Source: an uncultured Candidatus Saccharibacteria bacterium (GTDB lineage: Bacteria > Patescibacteriota > Minisyncoccia > Phycocordibacterales > UBA2100). From it: a stretch of 64,000 nt of DNA. This document shows positions 2,295 through 54,066 of the stretch, in pieces. Location of the stretch: assembly GCA_964471165.1 (NCBI GenBank), contig CAYYEX010000002.1, positions 60,965 through 124,964 of the forward strand, written 5' to 3'. Both the position numbers and the translations under genes were made by a program. The notes beneath the pieces are model-generated. The model saw only the letters and a program-made list of their open reading frames with translations, was not told where the DNA came from and made no database searches. Position 1 is the stretch's first letter, and every line of letters starts with the position of its first letter.

Positions 2295-2639
2295 AAAAGA
2301 GACCGGGGAAACTGCAAGCGTTAGCTCACAATTCCTCCGGCTCCATTGTCGTCCAATCGTCCAAGCAATTCTGCTTAGGCGGATGCGTTGACGCTCAGGT
2401 CAACGCGAAGTGGGCCTTGCAATCACCCACCGTCGCCGAAGCGCCTGTGCGTCTGGCCGACCTTCTTCACGGTCATTTTCGGGCGAAGCGGCATGTGAAT
2501 GCCGGTCTTGACGTCGGGCATGGTTCTCTCCATTGCCATGAAACCCCGGGGAAAGGGCAAGGGTAGACCCCTGAGCCACGCTCCACCAAAAAGTGCAGTG
2601 ATTCGTTGCCTACACAGGAGTATATTCCGTCAAAAGTTT

Positions 2640-2830
2640 CTGTCAATCATTGTATGTGTATAAGCTCATATTGCGATATACGATTGACATTCATTTATGT
2701 CAAATATGGCTCTATTTAGAGCCATATTTGGGTTTTCCACAGCATGTTTGTCAGCGTTCGTTGACAGAATATGCCGAGGGTATATATTGATTATGTTTAT
2801 GGAAGATAACATTACAAAGCGAAGAGAGAA
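2640..2830. promoter_or_regulatory. AT-rich regulatory region with several perfect palindromes (TTGACAT-n6-ATGTCAA; ATATGGCTCTA-tt-TAGAGCCATAT; TGTCAGCG-ttcg-TTGACAG)
   Basis: local GC drop; three operator-like inverted repeats within about 120 nt; possibly a small acidic ORF (2793-2933) downstream. Confidence 0.4.
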
Positions 2831-3224
2831 CATCATCGAGACGATGCGAACGCTGGTGCTCGCAGGGCAGATGCGCGGCGAGGAGCGGGACGAAAACGAT
2901 GATACGGATCTCCGTGGAGGGGACAGCGATTAAGAGAAAATCTGATTCTTATGAGCTATCTCAACCACAGTCCGCCAACGCTCGCAGAGAGATGTACCAG
3001 ATTTAACATAGAACCATGACAAAAAATCACAACAACGGACCACCAGCTTGAAAAAGAATCCTTATTAACCAAAACACATTTTCATGACTAACGCACAGGA
3101 CCACGCTCCGCCAGAGGAAAACGAGACGAGTCTAGAAGAGGAACAATTACTAGGGGATGGGGGCTAGCTAAAAATATTAAATGTATGGAACCCGTTATTG
3201 AACCGCCGTAGTGGTCGACAAGGC

Positions 3225-6068: not shown

Positions 6069-6473
6069 TTCCCCGACCTCTTTCGCTTTTCGCCGTCGCG
6101 AAAAGACATATGAAAAGCCCCGTCCTCGCGGATAGGGGCTTTCAAAGTAAAAAGGCCGACAGACGTAGCAACCCAATTTCTCTCTAATTTGGATTGCCGC
6201 CGTCTGGCGGCCTTCTCTTTGGTCTCGTTCATTCTTTAAAGAACTACGAAATCGTTTTTGGACAAAGTACTTTGCTTTCAATGAGTGCGGAGGCACCCTT
6301 TATATTTTGGCGTTATACATTTGTACCTATATATTTCGTTTATTTTAGAATCAACGAAAACCTGACAAAGAACCGCAGTCCGTAGAATAGCGTCGATAAC
6401 GGACAACGTAAAGGACACCCCTGTGGATAACTATATGAGTGTCCGATATAAAGGACAGCAGCACCGTAGAGGG

Positions 6474-42490: not shown

Positions 42491-42767
42491 GCGGCACAGT
42501 ATGCCTTTGCGTGAGAAAAAATGCAACGCTCTTACCCCTCACAGAGAGCATGTAGTTTTTTCGGCGTTCGCAGCGCGGCGGCGCGAGACAGAGGGAATTT
42601 TCAACAGAAAATTACCCGGCCGCAAAAACTACATGCTCTCGCACACTTTTCACTATCCCCGCGTTATCCACATGGTTGTCAACATCGCTACGAGGGTCGG
42701 TCAAGATTCCCTCCGCGCTTGATGTGCGTATAATGCTCAGCATTGTTCTCACTGAATCGATGCCGTA
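42491..42767. promoter_or_regulatory. rpmH-dnaA intergenic region with a perfect DnaA box TTATCCACA (42664-42672); candidate oriC half or dnaA promoter
   Basis: consensus DnaA box; divergent origin-type gene arrangement. Confidence 0.55.
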
Positions 42768-44126
42768 ATGAAATATATGATGACTAACCGTGAATTATGG
42801 CAAAACGCACTTGTTCAAATTGAACTTGGTACCACAGAAGCATCGTTTCGAACTTGGTTTCGTAACACCGACATCTCTCATCGCGATGGGGGAACTGTCC
42901 AGGTTGCTGTTCCGTCCAAAATAGTAAAGGAGTGGCTCTCTGACAAGCATCACAAGTTGATTCTCAAGGCGCTTCGCAGCCTCGATAGCTCTATTCGCAC
43001 AGTGGAATACGTTGTGCACCGCACCGCACCGCAAACTGACCGCAAACCACAGAAACAAGAGCCGCAGCAAAATGCATCGTTCGACTTACAGTCGCTCTAT
43101 ATAGACAAGCGCGACAACCTCAATCCGCGCTACACCTTCGAAACGTTTGTAGTGGGCCCGTTCAATCAACTCGCTCATGCCGCTGCAAAGGCAGTGCTCG
43201 AGCGCCCGGGTCTCGCGTACAACCCACTCTTTATCTATGGCTCCACTGGTCATGGAAAGACGCATCTTATCCAGGCTATTGGAAACTATTTCAAGAAGTC
43301 GCACGCGAACAAAAAGGTGCTTTATGTAACGAGTGAACGCTTTGCAATTGACTACATCAATGCAGTTCGTGCAGGACACGCAAACAATTTCAAAGACCAG
43401 TACCGGCAGTACGACGTACTTATAATGGACGACGTACAGTTTATTGCGAACACGGAGAAGACCCAGGAAGAGCTCTTCCACCTCTTCAACGCGCTTCGTG
43501 ATAACAATAAACAGATTGTATTCTCGTCCGATAAGCACCCAGCACTCCTCCCCGGCTTTGAAGACCGTCTCAAGGGCCGCTTCTCAGGCGGCATGATTGC
43601 GGAAATCCCTGAACCCGACGTTGAAAGCCGTACGGCCATAATTTCGGCGAAGATTGAGCAACATGGATTTTCTATCCCCGACGACATCATTCAGTACATC
43701 GCTGAAAACGTGAGGGGCAACATTCGTGAACTCGAGGGCGTGCTCAATATGATTGTTTGTAAGTCTCAGTTGAAGGGAAAGGCTATTTCCCACGCAGACG
43801 TACGTGCACTCATTAAGCACAATGTGAAGCCAAATCGCGGGGTTTCTATCGATGAAGTCGTGCGCCGTATTGCGCAATATTACGAAGTACCGGAAAAGAG
43901 TATCTACGAAAAGACTCGTAAGAAGGAGGTCGTAAAGCCACGACAAATAATCATGTATGTACTTCGTGAAGAATTCGCTGTTTCGTACCCATCAATTGGG
44001 GAGAAGCTTGGTGGTCGTGACCACACGACCGTTATTCACTCGTGCGAAAAAATCAAGGAAGAAATGAAAACATCCAGTTCACTCGAACAGGAGCTTGATC
44101 ACATTCGCGCACTCATTCACGCCTAG
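42768..44126 (+). CDS. dnaA: chromosomal replication initiator DnaA
   Basis: 452 aa; Walker A GSTGHGKTHL; box VII; C-terminal domain IV ...GGRDHTTVIHSCEKI... Confidence 0.9.
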   Translation: MKYMMTNRELWQNALVQIELGTTEASFRTWFRNTDISHRDGGTVQVAVPSKIVKEWLSDKHHKLILKALRSLDSSIRTVEYVVHRTAPQTDRKPQKQEPQQNASFDLQSLYIDKRDNLNPRYTFETFVVGPFNQLAHAAAKAVLERPGLAYNPLFIYGSTGHGKTHLIQAIGNYFKKSHANKKVLYVTSERFAIDYINAVRAGHANNFKDQYRQYDVLIMDDVQFIANTEKTQEELFHLFNALRDNNKQIVFSSDKHPALLPGFEDRLKGRFSGGMIAEIPEPDVESRTAIISAKIEQHGFSIPDDIIQYIAENVRGNIRELEGVLNMIVCKSQLKGKAISHADVRALIKHNVKPNRGVSIDEVVRRIAQYYEVPEKSIYEKTRKKEVVKPRQIIMYVLREEFAVSYPSIGEKLGGRDHTTVIHSCEKIKEEMKTSSSLEQELDHIRALIHA

Positions 44127-44363
44127 GGTATGTGGATATCGCGTGTATACCAGGGGGGAGAACACGGGGTACAGCAGTATGGAGTTTCGATGAACAACGT
44201 GGTGATATTCTCATTCGCTCGTGAATCCACTCGTTACACATCGCTCGCACAGCAGTTATCCACCACTCATCAATACAAGAATTATCGCGTGTTTCCTAGC
44301 TCAATTTGAGTTATCCAGTTATCCCCGTAACTAGTAGTAGTAATAGTCTTTAATTAAATAACT
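44127..44363. promoter_or_regulatory. dnaA-dnaN intergenic region with several DnaA-box-like 9-mers (TGTGGATAT, TTATCCACC, TTATCCAGT) and an AT-rich stretch before dnaN: candidate oriC
   Basis: boxes found by eye at about 44131, 44256, 44311; AT-rich 44320-44363. Confidence 0.55.
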
Positions 44364-50500: not shown

Positions 50501-51034
50501 CTATTCCGCGTTTGTGTACACATCCTCGACGTCGTCGTTTGCGTCAATCTCCTCGAGTATTTTCATGAGCGCCGCATTGTCGCCCTCGTTCAGAGGGACG
50601 GTTGTTTTTGCTGTGAACCCGCCTTCGACATCTTTTTCAAATGCCCACATCGCAGAACCTTGTGAGGCGAGGGCAAGACCGTTTTTTGTGAGGAGGTGTT
50701 TGATTTCCTGTGCAGTGCGGTTGCGGGAGTCGGTAACGGTGTTGATGAGGATGGCAGCACCGCCTGGCCCGTAGCTCTCGTACATGATGCTCTCCATCGA
50801 GCTCGCGTCGTTTGAAATTCCTTTGGCAACCGCGCGCTCAATGTTTTCTTTCGGCATGTTCTCTTTCTTGGCCTTTTCAATCATGGTGCGAAGCGTGGGC
50901 GAGGTAACGTCGCCGGCAGCCAGGCGACTCTCAACAATAATGCGCTTAGCGAGTTTGCCCCACACGTTGGACTTCGCCTTATCGGCCGCCCCCTTACGGT
51001 GTTTGATTTGTGACCATTTGTTGTGTCCGGACAT
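50501..51034 (-). CDS. yebC: YebC/PmpR-family DNA-binding regulator (short version)
   Basis: MSGHNKWSQIKHRKGAADKAKSNVWGKLAKRIIV is the highly conserved YebC N-terminus. Confidence 0.75.
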   Translation of the reverse strand: MSGHNKWSQIKHRKGAADKAKSNVWGKLAKRIIVESRLAAGDVTSPTLRTMIEKAKKENMPKENIERAVAKGISNDASSMESIMYESYGPGGAAILINTVTDSRNRTAQEIKHLLTKNGLALASQGSAMWAFEKDVEGGFTAKTTVPLNEGDNAALMKILEEIDANDDVEDVYTNAE

Positions 51035-51118: not shown

Positions 51119-51583
51119 ATGAAATCAATGATGGATGCGTGCGGACGGATGTTGTATAAGCCGTCGCTCGGACTACTTTTAATACGCGTTGGAACCGGTC
51201 TTGTGTTCTTGATGCACGGGTGGGGCAAATTCCAGAATATGGACGGCGCCAACGGATTTTTCTCAAGTATGGGATTCCCGATGGGGACCGCCACGTTTGT
51301 GGGAGGACTCGAGGTGATTGGCGGCATCGCACTTATTCTCGGCATCTTGCCGCGCGTATTTGCGATTCTCTTTGCAATCACGATGGCTGTTGCTATCTAT
51401 GCTACAGGCTTCTTTGCCAATGGCTACAAGCAGCACGAGCTCGAAATTGTCCTCTTGCTCCTCTCGCTTGGTGTCGCATTTGCCGGCTCAGGCCGCTGGT
51501 CGCTCTGGGCTGTCGAGTGCCGTAACTGCGGGGGAATGACATGCAAAGACGACCATCCACAGAGCGTTCCGGCACATCTCTAA
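51119..51583 (+). CDS. DoxX-family membrane protein
   Basis: LGLLLIRVGTGLVFLMHGWGKF DoxX signature; 154 aa. Confidence 0.65.
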   Translation: MKSMMDACGRMLYKPSLGLLLIRVGTGLVFLMHGWGKFQNMDGANGFFSSMGFPMGTATFVGGLEVIGGIALILGILPRVFAILFAITMAVAIYATGFFANGYKQHELEIVLLLLSLGVAFAGSGRWSLWAVECRNCGGMTCKDDHPQSVPAHL

Positions 51584-51671
51584 AGTGGCTCTGTAAAGCC
51601 GTGGAATGGCGGGTTTTGGGATATCCCCTGAGTTATCCACCCCACTATCCACATAGATACGCACGACTAAT

Positions 51672-51700
51672 CCCCCGAAACGGGGGATTTCGTGTTATTT
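51672..51700 (+). terminator. intrinsic terminator CCCCCG-aaa-CGGGGG + T-run after the DoxX gene
   Basis: hairpin plus ATTTCGTGTTATTT. Confidence 0.6.
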
Positions 51701-51732
51701 GCATGATTCATGAGCGCAGTATTATTTGATTT

Positions 51733-52001
51733 CTGATACGCCTTACCGTGTGTCAGCGAGAAACAGTCGATTGGTCGCAAGACCAAGAAAACCGAATCTC
51801 AGTTCCCAGGATTGGAGGAAAATGAAAGTTTTCCGGCGGCGTGGGAACAGTCGGTCAGAACAAAGGTCGTCCGGCGGAAGTCTCGTGAAAGCGAAACATC
51901 CAGCTCGAGTAGGGTGAGATCGTATCAAACCTTGCACAACCGAACGATTCGTCCGCAATGACCGAAGACGAAAAAAGGCCCCGAGTAATCGGAGCCTTTT
52001 T
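51733..52001 (+). ncRNA. candidate sRNA unit 1 (promoter-like TTGCAT-n15-TATTAT upstream; terminator GGCCCCGA-gtaa-TCGGAGCC-TTTTT at its end)
   Basis: no convincing ORF; begins with ccTTACCGTGTGTCAG, and the same 13-mer recurs just after its terminator; paralogous to unit 2. Confidence 0.4.
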
Positions 52002-52215
52002 CGTTACCGTGTGTCCTGCCAATTGTATCGGCTCACACGGCCACATATTTTCTTATCCCCACCCGATTCAAATATTTTTTGCAGCCCGTTTCTCGAGGGT
52101 AAACGCAAAATGCGGACGTTACTCACAGAGTTATACACATAGATATACAGTACTTTTCCACCAAATTTCGCTTTTTCGCAAAATTTGCGAAAAAACAAAG
52201 GGGGTATAGTAATCG

Positions 52216-52520
52216 AACTGATGCGCTTTACCGTGTGTCAGTCGATCTCAAGGGAGCGACGGCAACGTCGAAAACCCCGGAAATCAGTTCCTAGGATCTG
52301 TCTCAGCGTAAGCCGAAGTACAGTGCAGGAATGGGCGGCGAGAGCACAGGAGTGATTGCTACGAGACGGGGAGATTATATCAAGCCGAGAAGTGGAGATT
52401 GCTGATTCGAAATCGCCGTGAACACAAAGACCTCCCGCAAGGGAGGTCTTTGTGTTTGTCTCTGGCACGAATTCGAAAATCTGGAAAGGAAAAAGGCCTC
52501 GAATTTCTCGAGGCCTTTTT
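52216..52520 (+). ncRNA. candidate sRNA unit 2 (promoter-like TTGCGA..TATAGT upstream; internal 15-bp hairpin with GCAA loop; terminator GGCCTCGA-atttc-TCGAGGCC-TTTTT)
   Basis: starts ctTTACCGTGTGTCAG; shares gaaaacc..atc.cagttcc.aggat with unit 1; followed again by cgTTACCGTGcGTCc. Confidence 0.4.
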
Positions 52521-52599
52521 CGTTACCGTGCGTCCCGCTCATTCTATAGCCTTTATCAGGCGCGGAATTTGTAACGATGTGTGCATATCTGAGCAATGT

Positions 52600-52983
52600 T
52601 CAGCTTTTCACCATCAGTTTTTCTGGTTCGATGCCGTACGCTTTGCAAAACTTCAGGGCGCAGGCATGGAGTGGCGTGCCAGATTTTGTCTGAATTGCCC
52701 GCGAAACACGCTTTGCACAGAATGTCGCGTCCGATTTCTCCCGGCGGAAGAACTTGCCGATTTTCTCGCGGTCCCACGAAGGGTAGAGCGCACATGCTGC
52801 TGCCATCGCAACGACACGTGCGTGGGATTCGTTTGCGCCGCTCTCCAGGGAGCGCATGGCCTCGACCGTTGAGTTCAGGTGATGCGCTACTGCAGAGGCA
52901 AGGTCATGCATAAGCGACTCGGTGTACACGGTCGGAACCGGACCCTTTTTTGAGGTCAATTTATCCGATGGCGGTGCGTTCAT
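52600..52983 (-). CDS. stand-alone DnaA domain-IV-like (DnaA C-terminal DNA-binding domain) protein
   Basis: HARVVAMAAACALYPSWDREKIGKFFRREKSDATFCAKRVSRAIQT aligns by eye with DnaA domain IV of this genome's own DnaA ([42 protein letters not shown]); no AAA+ domain; start taken at MNAPP. Confidence 0.5.
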   Translation of the reverse strand: MNAPPSDKLTSKKGPVPTVYTESLMHDLASAVAHHLNSTVEAMRSLESGANESHARVVAMAAACALYPSWDREKIGKFFRREKSDATFCAKRVSRAIQTKSGTPLHACALKFCKAYGIEPEKLMVKS

Positions 52984-53049
52984 TTGAACTCCGGTTTTGA
53001 AAAGTGGGTGAATCTGCGCGCATCCTAAGCTTCCTGCGCAGGGAAGCAA

Positions 53050-54066
53050 CTACAACGAGAGTGGTTCCTGAGATGCGGGTGGTTTGAACCCCATGTGGAG
53101 ATACGCCTTCTTTGTTGCGGTGCGTCCGCGAGGCGTTCTATCTATCAAGCCTGTCTGCATCAAGTAGGGCTCGTTTACTTCTTCGATTGTGGCCTCTTCT
53201 TCGGAAAGTGCTGCTGCAATCGTTTTGAGTCCCACGGGCGCGCCATTGAACTTTTCTATCAAGAGCGTCAGGATGTCGCGGTCTGTCTGGTTTAATCCAG
53301 CCTCATCGATTTCAAGCATCGCGAGCGCGCGTTTTACCGTTTTTACGTCGAGCGCTTGCTCGCTTACTGCAGCGTAGTCGCGGGCGCGTTTCAATAGGTA
53401 GTTTGCGGTTCGCGGAGTTGAGCGTGAGCGTTTTGAGATTTCCATCAAAGAATCGGCGTCCGCTTCAATACCAAGAATCTTTCCAGAGCGTCGCAAAATC
53501 TCAGCGATTTCCTCGTCAGTGTAGTACTGCAGGCGGAATGTGCCACCGGAAAATCGTGAGCGCAAAGGTGCTGAGAGCATTGAAATACGCGTTGTTGCAG
53601 CAATCAGGGTAAAGGGCGGCAGCTCAAGTTGCACGGTGCGTGCAGCGGGGCCCTTGCCAATCACAATATCGAGCACGCCGGACTCCATTGCCGGGTACAT
53701 AACTTCTTCAATGGTGCGGTTCAGGCGATGAATTTCGTCGATAAAAAGCACGTCGCCGGGGGACAGGTTGGTGAGAATTGAAGCCAAATCACCCACGCGC
53801 TCAATCGCAGGGCCCGATGTGGCGCGCAAATTAGCCCCGACCTCTTTGGCGATGAGGTGGGCGAGGGTAGTCTTACCCAAACCAGGGGGACCATACAAAA
53901 GCACGTGTTCCGGTTGGTGGTTTCTGCCCTTTGCGGCAGTGAGAAGGATACGGAGATTCTCCTTTATAGCTGATTGGCCCACATATTCAGCCCACGAATC
54001 TGGGCGGAGGGCTTGGTCGAGGGTCCGGGAGCCCTTCTGGGTCGCGGAATCGTCGGGGGTCACCAT
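53050..54066 (-). CDS. ruvB: Holliday junction branch-migration helicase RuvB
   Basis: Walker A LLYGPPGLGKTTLA; FIDEIHRL; sensor and winged-helix C-terminus; 338 aa. Confidence 0.9.
   Translation of the reverse strand: MVTPDDSATQKGSRTLDQALRPDSWAEYVGQSAIKENLRILLTAAKGRNHQPEHVLLYGPPGLGKTTLAHLIAKEVGANLRATSGPAIERVGDLASILTNLSPGDVLFIDEIHRLNRTIEEVMYPAMESGVLDIVIGKGPAARTVQLELPPFTLIAATTRISMLSAPLRSRFSGGTFRLQYYTDEEIAEILRRSGKILGIEADADSLMEISKRSRSTPRTANYLLKRARDYAAVSEQALDVKTVKRALAMLEIDEAGLNQTDRDILTLLIEKFNGAPVGLKTIAAALSEEEATIEEVNEPYLMQTGLIDRTPRGRTATKKAYLHMGFKPPASQEPLSL

Follow-up and report, generated by a model that had tools for sequence, protein, structure and literature searches.

A DnaA domain-IV-like protein gene next to DnaA-box arrays and two structured RNA units in an uncultured bacterium

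The locus described here lies in a 64,000-nucleotide stretch of DNA from an uncultured bacterium (contig CAYYEX010000002.1, positions 60,965 to 124,964), and this whole stretch is referred to as the window. It is part of a metagenome-assembled Paceibacterota genome (Parcubacteria, Kaiserbacteria-like). The gene order is yebC (-), doxX (+), about 1 kb of non-coding DNA, a short open reading frame (ORF) for a protein resembling domain IV of DnaA (-), ruvB (-) and a type IV pilus ATPase gene; yidC, dnaA and dnaN are also encoded in the window. Two tandem, diverged RNA units with a mean column identity of 74% (alignment A1) lie in the 1-kb gap. Both have a promoter and a terminator of their own, and an array of DnaA-box-like sites stands upstream of each of them (Table 1). 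The same protein and locus were found on the 298-kb ENA contig ERZ27247837 k141_321895, and the closest related loci are those of metagenome-assembled genomes labelled Candidatus Paceibacterota or Kaiserbacteria, with 8-20 kb of DNA for each relative. The analysis points, tentatively, to a lineage-specific module of Kaiserbacteria-like Paceibacterota, in which paired RNAs would be gated by DnaA and domain-IV-only proteins would serve as accessory modulators. We put the probability of this reading at roughly 0.45, i.e. somewhat short of even odds.

RNA units, DnaA-box arrays and the dnaA region

A first-pass annotation, made by eye from the sequence, had proposed two small RNA (sRNA)-like units in the gap, and both of them proved to be real. 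The fold z-scores against shuffled sequences are -5.6 for unit 1 and -6.4 for unit 2. A scan with the 24-nucleotide (nt) motif of the 5' end detected eight loci in GTDB species genomes and 11 in metagenomes, but none in viral contigs, and the sequence of this 5' hairpin is near-identical in 21 sequences. When 21 distinct units were aligned, the 33 pairs of six helices were found to be paired in 95.8% of cases, compared to 28-42% pairing in slid controls, and 15 of the pairs showed compensatory double changes, which was matched by none of 500 shuffles. The u1, u2 and single-copy types have a common architecture. A 9-base-pair 5' hairpin, the loop of which is invariant, is followed by two arms with GNRA caps, by a multi-branch domain that is closed by a long-range helix and contains the invariant loop GAGAUCRUAUCAA, and by a terminator. 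In all loci, the -10 hexamer ends 7-8 nt before the conserved 5' end of the RNA. The G-U pairs in helix P1 and the polarity of promoters and terminators identify the plus strand as the RNA strand. An RNA read from the minus strand was rejected, since it folds more weakly (z-scores -4.7 and -4.1) and loses P1, and since only the plus strand is consistent with the promoters and with the G-U pairs. Going by covariation and fold z-scores, the units are real RNA genes; they belong to an uncatalogued family of structured RNAs.

No match over the units was found in Rfam 15 at the gathering threshold, and searches at E <= 10 for the window and at E <= 1 for five related loci delivered terminator-like chance matches only. 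The 6S, signal recognition particle, RNase P, tmRNA, raiA and CsrB-like RNAs were considered and dismissed, because Rfam did not support any of them, a rod-like structure is not seen, and GGA motifs are located within stems. We did not find a published description of these RNAs in the literature. Target prediction with RNA.duplexfold on 51 start regions yielded meaningless long duplexes, among which dnaA and dnaN were no outliers. At one related locus (L020, 695-890), the RNA is shortened to about 195 nt: the P5-P6 domain, which includes the GAGAUCRUAUCAA loop, is missing altogether, while P1-P4 and the promoter are retained, as are boxes at -88 and -76.

The three tandem DnaA-box-like sites that had been noticed upstream of unit 1 are present and are conserved in relatives. 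They are spaced by 12 nt and lie at -112, -100 and -88 from the RNA, and the array was recovered in L004, L008, L009, L010, L012, L013 and L021. Taken by itself, the window shows a modest excess of boxes (20 sites that have one mismatch or none, where 11.1 +- 3.2 are expected). The signal from the comparison of 22 distinct homologous upstream regions is decisive: they contain 62 same-strand 9-mers with at most two mismatches from TTATCCACA, whereas 8.3 +- 2.7 are expected from dinucleotide shuffles, and the boxes occupy the fixed positions -112, -100, -88, -76 and -64, with a box at -88 +- 1 in all 22 regions. Across about 20 related loci, 2-4 same-strand 9-mers that resemble DnaA boxes precede every RNA unit in a fixed 11-12-nt register; the arrays extend from -112 to -56 and are located 35-45 nt upstream of the -35 element. 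Due to this excess and the fixed register, we regard the boxes as genuine DnaA-box-type elements, as judged by sequence comparison. They are equally conserved in the approximately ten RNA loci that are devoid of any domain-IV-only gene, which makes full-length DnaA their presumptive default ligand.

Another conserved block directly follows each terminator. It has the form TTTTTCG-TTACCGTG(T/C)GTCC, followed by CATT(G/C)TATAG and then by a DnaA-box-like site, and its 12-mer (TTACCGTGTGTC) is identical to part of the 5' hairpin of the RNA. This module is also found in L004, L005, L007, L009, L010, L012, L013, L021, L022, L025 and L026. Viewed on the minus strand, it presents a box and a -10 element and resembles the driver of an antisense RNA of about 50 nt that would run into the bidirectional terminator. 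The module could serve as a binding site or as an antisense partner, or it could be the scar of a duplication.

A three-box array of the same design as those before the RNA genes is found in the promoter of dnaA, where it is probably a site of dnaA autoregulation. The likely core of oriC contains two head-to-tail boxes, TTATCCAGT and TTATCCCCG, five DnaA-trios (TAG TAG TAG TAA TAG) and an AT-rich stretch that runs up to the ATG of dnaN; further boxes lie nearby at 44131-44139 (-) and 44256-44264. The cumulative GC skew has its minimum at about 44 kb; this signal is weak, and gene strand is a confounding factor. The arrays at 51621-51653 and 52119-52162 were also considered as the origin and rejected, since promoters and RNA genes follow them and the core of boxes, trios and AT-rich sequence lies at 44311-44363. 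The distance between dnaA and the RNA genes is about 8 kb in the window and about 5 kb in the lineage with a single RNA unit (L011 7266-8000 (-), L024 5540-7075 (-)), and the RNA locus may generally be origin-proximal. Additional near-consensus or perfect DnaA boxes are found in intergenic positions near the left end of the window (2655-2663 (-), 2733-2741 (+) and 6422-6430 (-)), where a long non-coding stretch (about 2300-3220) adjoins tRNA genes.

The domain-IV-like protein and its family

As had been annotated, an ORF (52600-53049, minus strand) lies directly downstream of ruvB, which ends at 53050. The ATG at 52983 is its likely start, because GGAG is found six bases upstream, gene calling on the source contig gave the same 127-residue product, and MNA is also the start of the relative P0002. 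The gene is probably co-transcribed with ruvB.

The ORF had been proposed to encode a stand-alone domain IV without AAA+ domain, on the basis of an alignment by eye to the DnaA of the same genome. This pairwise similarity is not significant in BLASTP (E = 1.1), but the relationship is real at the level of profiles and structure. A comparison of the family with a single DnaA C-terminus by hhalign (probability 0.4%) is uninformative, since the template consisted of one sequence. The suggested search with the Bac_DnaA_C model (PF08299) gave the sole Pfam match of the protein (E = 8e-5 to 1.5e-4), although its 22-23 bits are below the Pfam gathering cut-off of 31.5 bits. The same model is matched by all eight members of the family (best E = 3.4e-6), and at E <= 0.02 the family profile retrieved only DnaA chains from the PDB (Thermotoga, Aquifex, Bacillus, Mycobacterium and Escherichia coli). 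The AlphaFold (AF2) model of the protein (predicted local distance difference test score 86, predicted template modelling (TM) score 0.78) has the fold of DnaA domain IV: it could be superposed on the DNA-bound domain (3pvp, 1j1v) with target-normalised TM scores of 0.79-0.82 and a root-mean-square deviation of about 2 A (1.9-2.0) over 90-94 columns, and the top ten matches of a Foldseek search of the PDB were all DnaA. The hidden Markov model of the family also detects sister proteins of the A-type described below at the same locus elsewhere (E = 2e-12 to 1e-8). Since Pfam, the PDB profile search, the superposition and the link to the sister proteins agree, the window protein is a stand-alone homolog of DnaA domain IV. 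Neither an AAA+ domain nor a remnant of one was found in it, Bac_DnaA_C being all that Pfam reported. A fragment of a dnaA pseudogene or a full-length DnaA was rejected for the same reason, and because the upstream gene is an intact ruvB and the real dnaA is located elsewhere in the window (42768-44126).

To survey the distribution of such paralogs, as had been suggested, 1.84 billion representative proteins were scanned exhaustively with HMMER (phmmer), which resulted in eight family proteins; word-indexed homolog searches found only 2-4 matches. All members with readable context come from the ruvB/RNA locus in Paceibacterota-type contigs, a statement that does not extend to P0007, whose surroundings were not seen. 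The paralogs are few, and the family appears to be rare and confined to Kaiserbacteria-like Paceibacterota. The relatives share 29-40% identity, their ORFs are intact throughout, and the conserved core consists of Ala55, Arg56, Phe79, Arg81, Ser94, Ala96 and Leu123.

Two types can be distinguished by the base-reading motif, which the A-type keeps and the B-type, including the window protein, has lost. A-type proteins have about 242 residues, in which domain IV is combined with a small N-terminal helix-turn-helix (HTH) resembling DeoR or sigma region 4. They carry the recognition motif GGRDHTTV or GKRDNTTI and pass the cut-off for Bac_DnaA_C (42.7 and 52 bits), but there is no A-type gene in the window. 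In the B-type, RxxSD(V/A)xF replaces GRDHTTVLH. Some B-type proteins have two domains (P0003, P0004, P0008), and others consist of domain IV only (P0001, which is the window protein, P0002, P0005 and P0006). A- and B-type genes stand in tandem in L005 and L025.

Table 1. Coordinates of the features discussed, given for the window except where a related locus is named.
Feature	Position	Strand	Remarks
yebC	50501-51034	-	
doxX	51119-51583	+	
DnaA-box array 1	51621-51629, 51633-51641, 51645-51653	+	ATATCCCCT, TTATCCACC, CTATCCACA
Promoter of unit 1	51698..51725	+	sigma-70-type, TTTGCA-16-TATTAT
Structured RNA unit 1	51733..52001	+	u1 type, ~269 nt; helices P1-P6, GNRA-capped hairpins
Intrinsic terminator of unit 1	51972-52001	+	
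Post-terminator module 1	52002..52061	+	CGTTACCGTGTGTCC, then CAATTGTATCGG, then box-like TTATCCCCA (52053-52061)
DnaA-box array 2	52119..52162	+	TTACTCACA, TTATACACA, TTTTCCACC; at -99, -87, -64 from unit 2
Promoter of unit 2	52184..52210	+	sigma-70-type, TTTGCG-15-TATAGT
Structured RNA unit 2	52218..52460	+	u2 type, ~243 nt; final hairpin 52421-52456
Bidirectional terminator hairpin	52483..52527		common to read-through from unit 2 and the protein gene convergent to it
Post-terminator module 2	52521..52585	+	CGTTACCGTGCGTCC, then CATTCTATAGCC, then degenerate box GTGTGCATATCTG
Stand-alone DnaA domain-IV-like protein gene (B-type)	52600..52983	-	127 residues; alternative TTG start at 53049 gives 149 residues
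ruvB	53050..54066	-	directly upstream of the domain-IV gene; conserved neighbour
Three-box array in the dnaA promoter	42653-42684		CTATCCCCG, TTATCCACA, TTGTCAACA; 11-12-nt spacing
dnaA, full length	42768..44126	+	domains I, III, IV
Likely oriC core	44311..44363	+	between dnaA and dnaN
A-type paralogs	L010 1593-2351; L013 4833-5591; L005 1-561; L025 2-427; L027 234-962		

Proposed mechanism and its rivals

In all nine loci for which the DNA was available (the window, L004, L005, L009, L010, L013, L025, L026 and L027), the gene for the family protein is convergent to the RNA unit or units, and the contig of P0006 shows the same synteny of ruvB, protein, a gap of more than 1 kb, and doxX. One way to account for this strict linkage would be an RNA-binding partner, in which the protein forms a ribonucleoprotein with the adjacent structured RNAs, for example via the invariant P1 hairpin. 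The protein is basic and the 5' hairpin of the RNA is invariant, as such a partnership would require, but the protein is missing from half of the RNA loci, and we did not find any earlier case of a DnaA domain IV that binds RNA. Moreover, the invariant 12-mer recurs as DNA after each terminator, so that a DNA site fits at least equally well. We consider an RNA-binding role quite improbable.

We tentatively prefer the reading in which DnaA gates the paired RNAs. Full-length DnaA would bind the arrays cooperatively and thereby couple the output of RNA to its own level or nucleotide state, and the domain-IV-only proteins would be accessory modulators of this DnaA-dependent control. A-type proteins are expected to be able to occupy boxes, because they retain the base-reading residues of DnaA; they would fill single boxes and, being unable to oligomerise, would disrupt the filaments of DnaA or cap them. 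The B-type protein of the window would most likely bind a variant site in the same control region, such as the degenerate boxes or the TTACCGTGTGTC/CATTCTATAG module. Alternatively, it might act via contact with DnaA, and not by competing for TTATCCACA.

A more far-reaching version, which we think unlikely, is that RNAs, arrays and domain-IV proteins form a module that signals replication status, with the RNAs feeding back on replication or the cell cycle. Occupancy by DnaA would then gate a pair of tertiary-structured RNAs, and A-type box-readers and their B-type derivatives would tune this gate. The RNAs might sequester DnaA or a partner in the way 6S RNA sequesters RNA polymerase, and a short antisense transcript from the post-terminator module may take part.

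Several observations weigh against the gating of the RNAs by DnaA with domain-IV proteins as modulators, the first of which concern the recognition residues. According to alignment A4, GRDHTTVLH is replaced by RREKSDATF in the window protein. It retains counterparts of Arg407, Arg432 and Arg442 of E. coli as well as the basic HTH, but the position of Arg399 is occupied by Ser, whereas Arg is kept in other B-types, and equivalents of His434, Thr435/436 and His439 are lacking. In the 1J1V complex, we take His434, Thr435/436 and His439 to make the base-specific contacts and, together with Arg399, to read the DnaA box. The box-reading set (Arg399, Asp433-His434-Thr435-Thr436, His439) is thus not retained, and recognition of canonical DnaA boxes by the window protein is doubtful because of the loss of the Arg399, His434, Thr435/436 and His439 equivalents. 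That it binds DNA at all is suggested by its fold and charge.

These residues also bear on the role that the first-pass annotation had suggested for the protein, namely binding to TTATCCACA in competition with DnaA, be it at the arrays, the dnaA promoter or oriC. The domain-IV fold, the abundant conserved boxes around the gene, the conserved equivalents of Arg407, Arg432 and Arg442, and the full reading motif of the A-type relatives would all be in line with this. However, with Ser for Arg399 and RREKSDATF for GRDHTTVLH, the residues for base contact have been lost, the protein stays below the Pfam cut-off (23 vs. 31.5 bits), and the motif is kept only by A-type proteins, which are absent from the window. 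The proposal was therefore not upheld: for this particular protein, competition is possible but not favoured, and we rate its chances as low.

According to another explanation, the protein does not bind DNA, but mimics domain IV and titrates a regulator of the RIDA (regulatory inactivation of DnaA) or YabA type, which would raise the activity of DnaA. HdaB (Caulobacter CCNA_01111 and alphaproteobacterial homologs; Frandi & Collier, NAR 2020) is a short, stand-alone domain-IV-like protein that lacks Arg399, keeps Leu422, titrates HdaA by binding to it and always co-occurs with HdaA (PMC7049699). The window protein is similarly short and domain-IV-like only, it likewise lacks an equivalent of Arg399 as well as the base-reading His and Thr, and both proteins are presumed modulators of DnaA-dependent processes. 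However, Leu422, which contacts Hda, corresponds to Arg in the window protein and to His, Pro, Ser or Lys in other members, and the family belongs to Paceibacterota and is tied to an RNA/DnaA-box locus, a strict linkage that a decoy would leave unexplained. Hda/HdaA belongs to Proteobacteria, and nothing resembling an Hda gene was noticed when window ORFs were scanned, 12 of which were put through Pfam. The exhaustive HMMER search gave no alphaproteobacterial relatives and did not detect any kinship to HdaB beyond the shared domain (the residues of HdaB are taken from its description), and the HTH region is still strongly basic, which fits nucleic-acid binding. On balance, a decoy seems improbable to us. 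The initial impression that this is not a described regulator family holds insofar as the family is distinct from HdaB, but as a stand-alone domain IV it does have a precedent (PMC7049699).

The distribution of the protein also has to be considered. About ten distinct RNA loci, i.e. about half (L006, L007, L011, L012, L014 and L019-L023), do not have a domain-IV-only gene, and ruvB or a Usg-like gene is found there instead, from which it follows that the protein is dispensable for the RNA/box system. By the same token, comparison of the loci indicates that the RNA and box system is older and wider, and that the proteins are linked to it as an accessory. Since a Usg-like gene holds the position in L007 and L012, the co-location could also be the result of a variable insertion hot-spot downstream of ruvB. 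Finally, as 8-20 kb was seen for each relative, paralogs may be present elsewhere in the genomes of the relatives.

Such a variable position raises the question of whether the gene is a functionless passenger, a decaying duplicate of domain IV in the region downstream of ruvB. The Usg-like protein (PF06233, E = 3e-39) fills the slot between ruvB and the RNA in some relatives (L007 728-1204 (-), L012 3236-3793 (+)), which marks this region as a variable slot, other relatives have nothing there, and the family is rare. A decaying gene would not be expected to keep an intact ORF and conserved core residues across relatives with 29-40% identity, a confident fold prediction, a ribosome-binding site and its synteny, and we consider this explanation very improbable indeed. 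In L027, a Usg-like gene (1-117) is found beside the A-type gene.

Relation to known systems and significance

With DnaA domain IV (1J1V, 3PVP), the window protein shares the fold, the ...AR-I-AM... helix, the F-x-R motif and the basic HTH, but it has no domains I-III and has lost the equivalents of the residues that read TTATNCACA. DnaA-box clusters outside oriC, and a role of DnaA in transcription control, are known from systems such as the dnaA promoter, datA and DARS of E. coli and the clusters of B. subtilis. The arrays described here resemble them in that closely spaced boxes of the same orientation lie upstream of promoters and away from the origin, but differ by their invariant register before every member of a structured RNA family. 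We found no described equivalent of box arrays in fixed register before RNA genes in the literature.

Tandem, diverged copies that each have their own promoter, terminator and regulator array are also seen in the sRNA pairs PrrF1/PrrF2 (Fur boxes) and OmrA/OmrB (OmpR sites). Unlike these sRNAs, the units at this locus are about 245-270 nt long and multi-helical, with GNRA-capped hairpins, a long-range closing helix and no Rfam match, so that, from their sequence and predicted structure, u1 and u2 bear a closer resemblance to RNAs that bind proteins or adopt a tertiary structure than to base-pairing sRNAs. The IS200/IS605-like Y1 (TnpA-REP) proteins, which have a C-terminal Bac_DnaA_C-like domain (PMC6006769), are a further example of a domain-IV-like HTH that is not part of DnaA and whose DNA specificity is altered or unknown. 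In contrast to these, the window protein has no Y1/HUH domain, there are no flanking mobile-element repeats, and the synteny is conserved.

With the fixed array before every copy, the RNAs would be among the clearest candidates for DnaA-regulated RNAs, and in the pair of A-type and B-type proteins one can see how the specificity of a box-reading domain is lost or altered. A clade-specific radiation of domain-IV proteins without AAA+ domain and an uncatalogued family of structured RNAs thus come together at one locus. To our knowledge, a few model organisms have provided nearly all that is understood about how DnaA is controlled, and bacteria of the Candidate Phyla Radiation have tiny genomes and unknown cell-cycle control. 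If the link between protein and RNA genes is functional, the family would be a second, independent domain-IV-only regulator after HdaB and the first one tied to RNA genes. The locus suggests a lineage-specific link of replication control with RNA regulation in an uncultivated group of bacteria.

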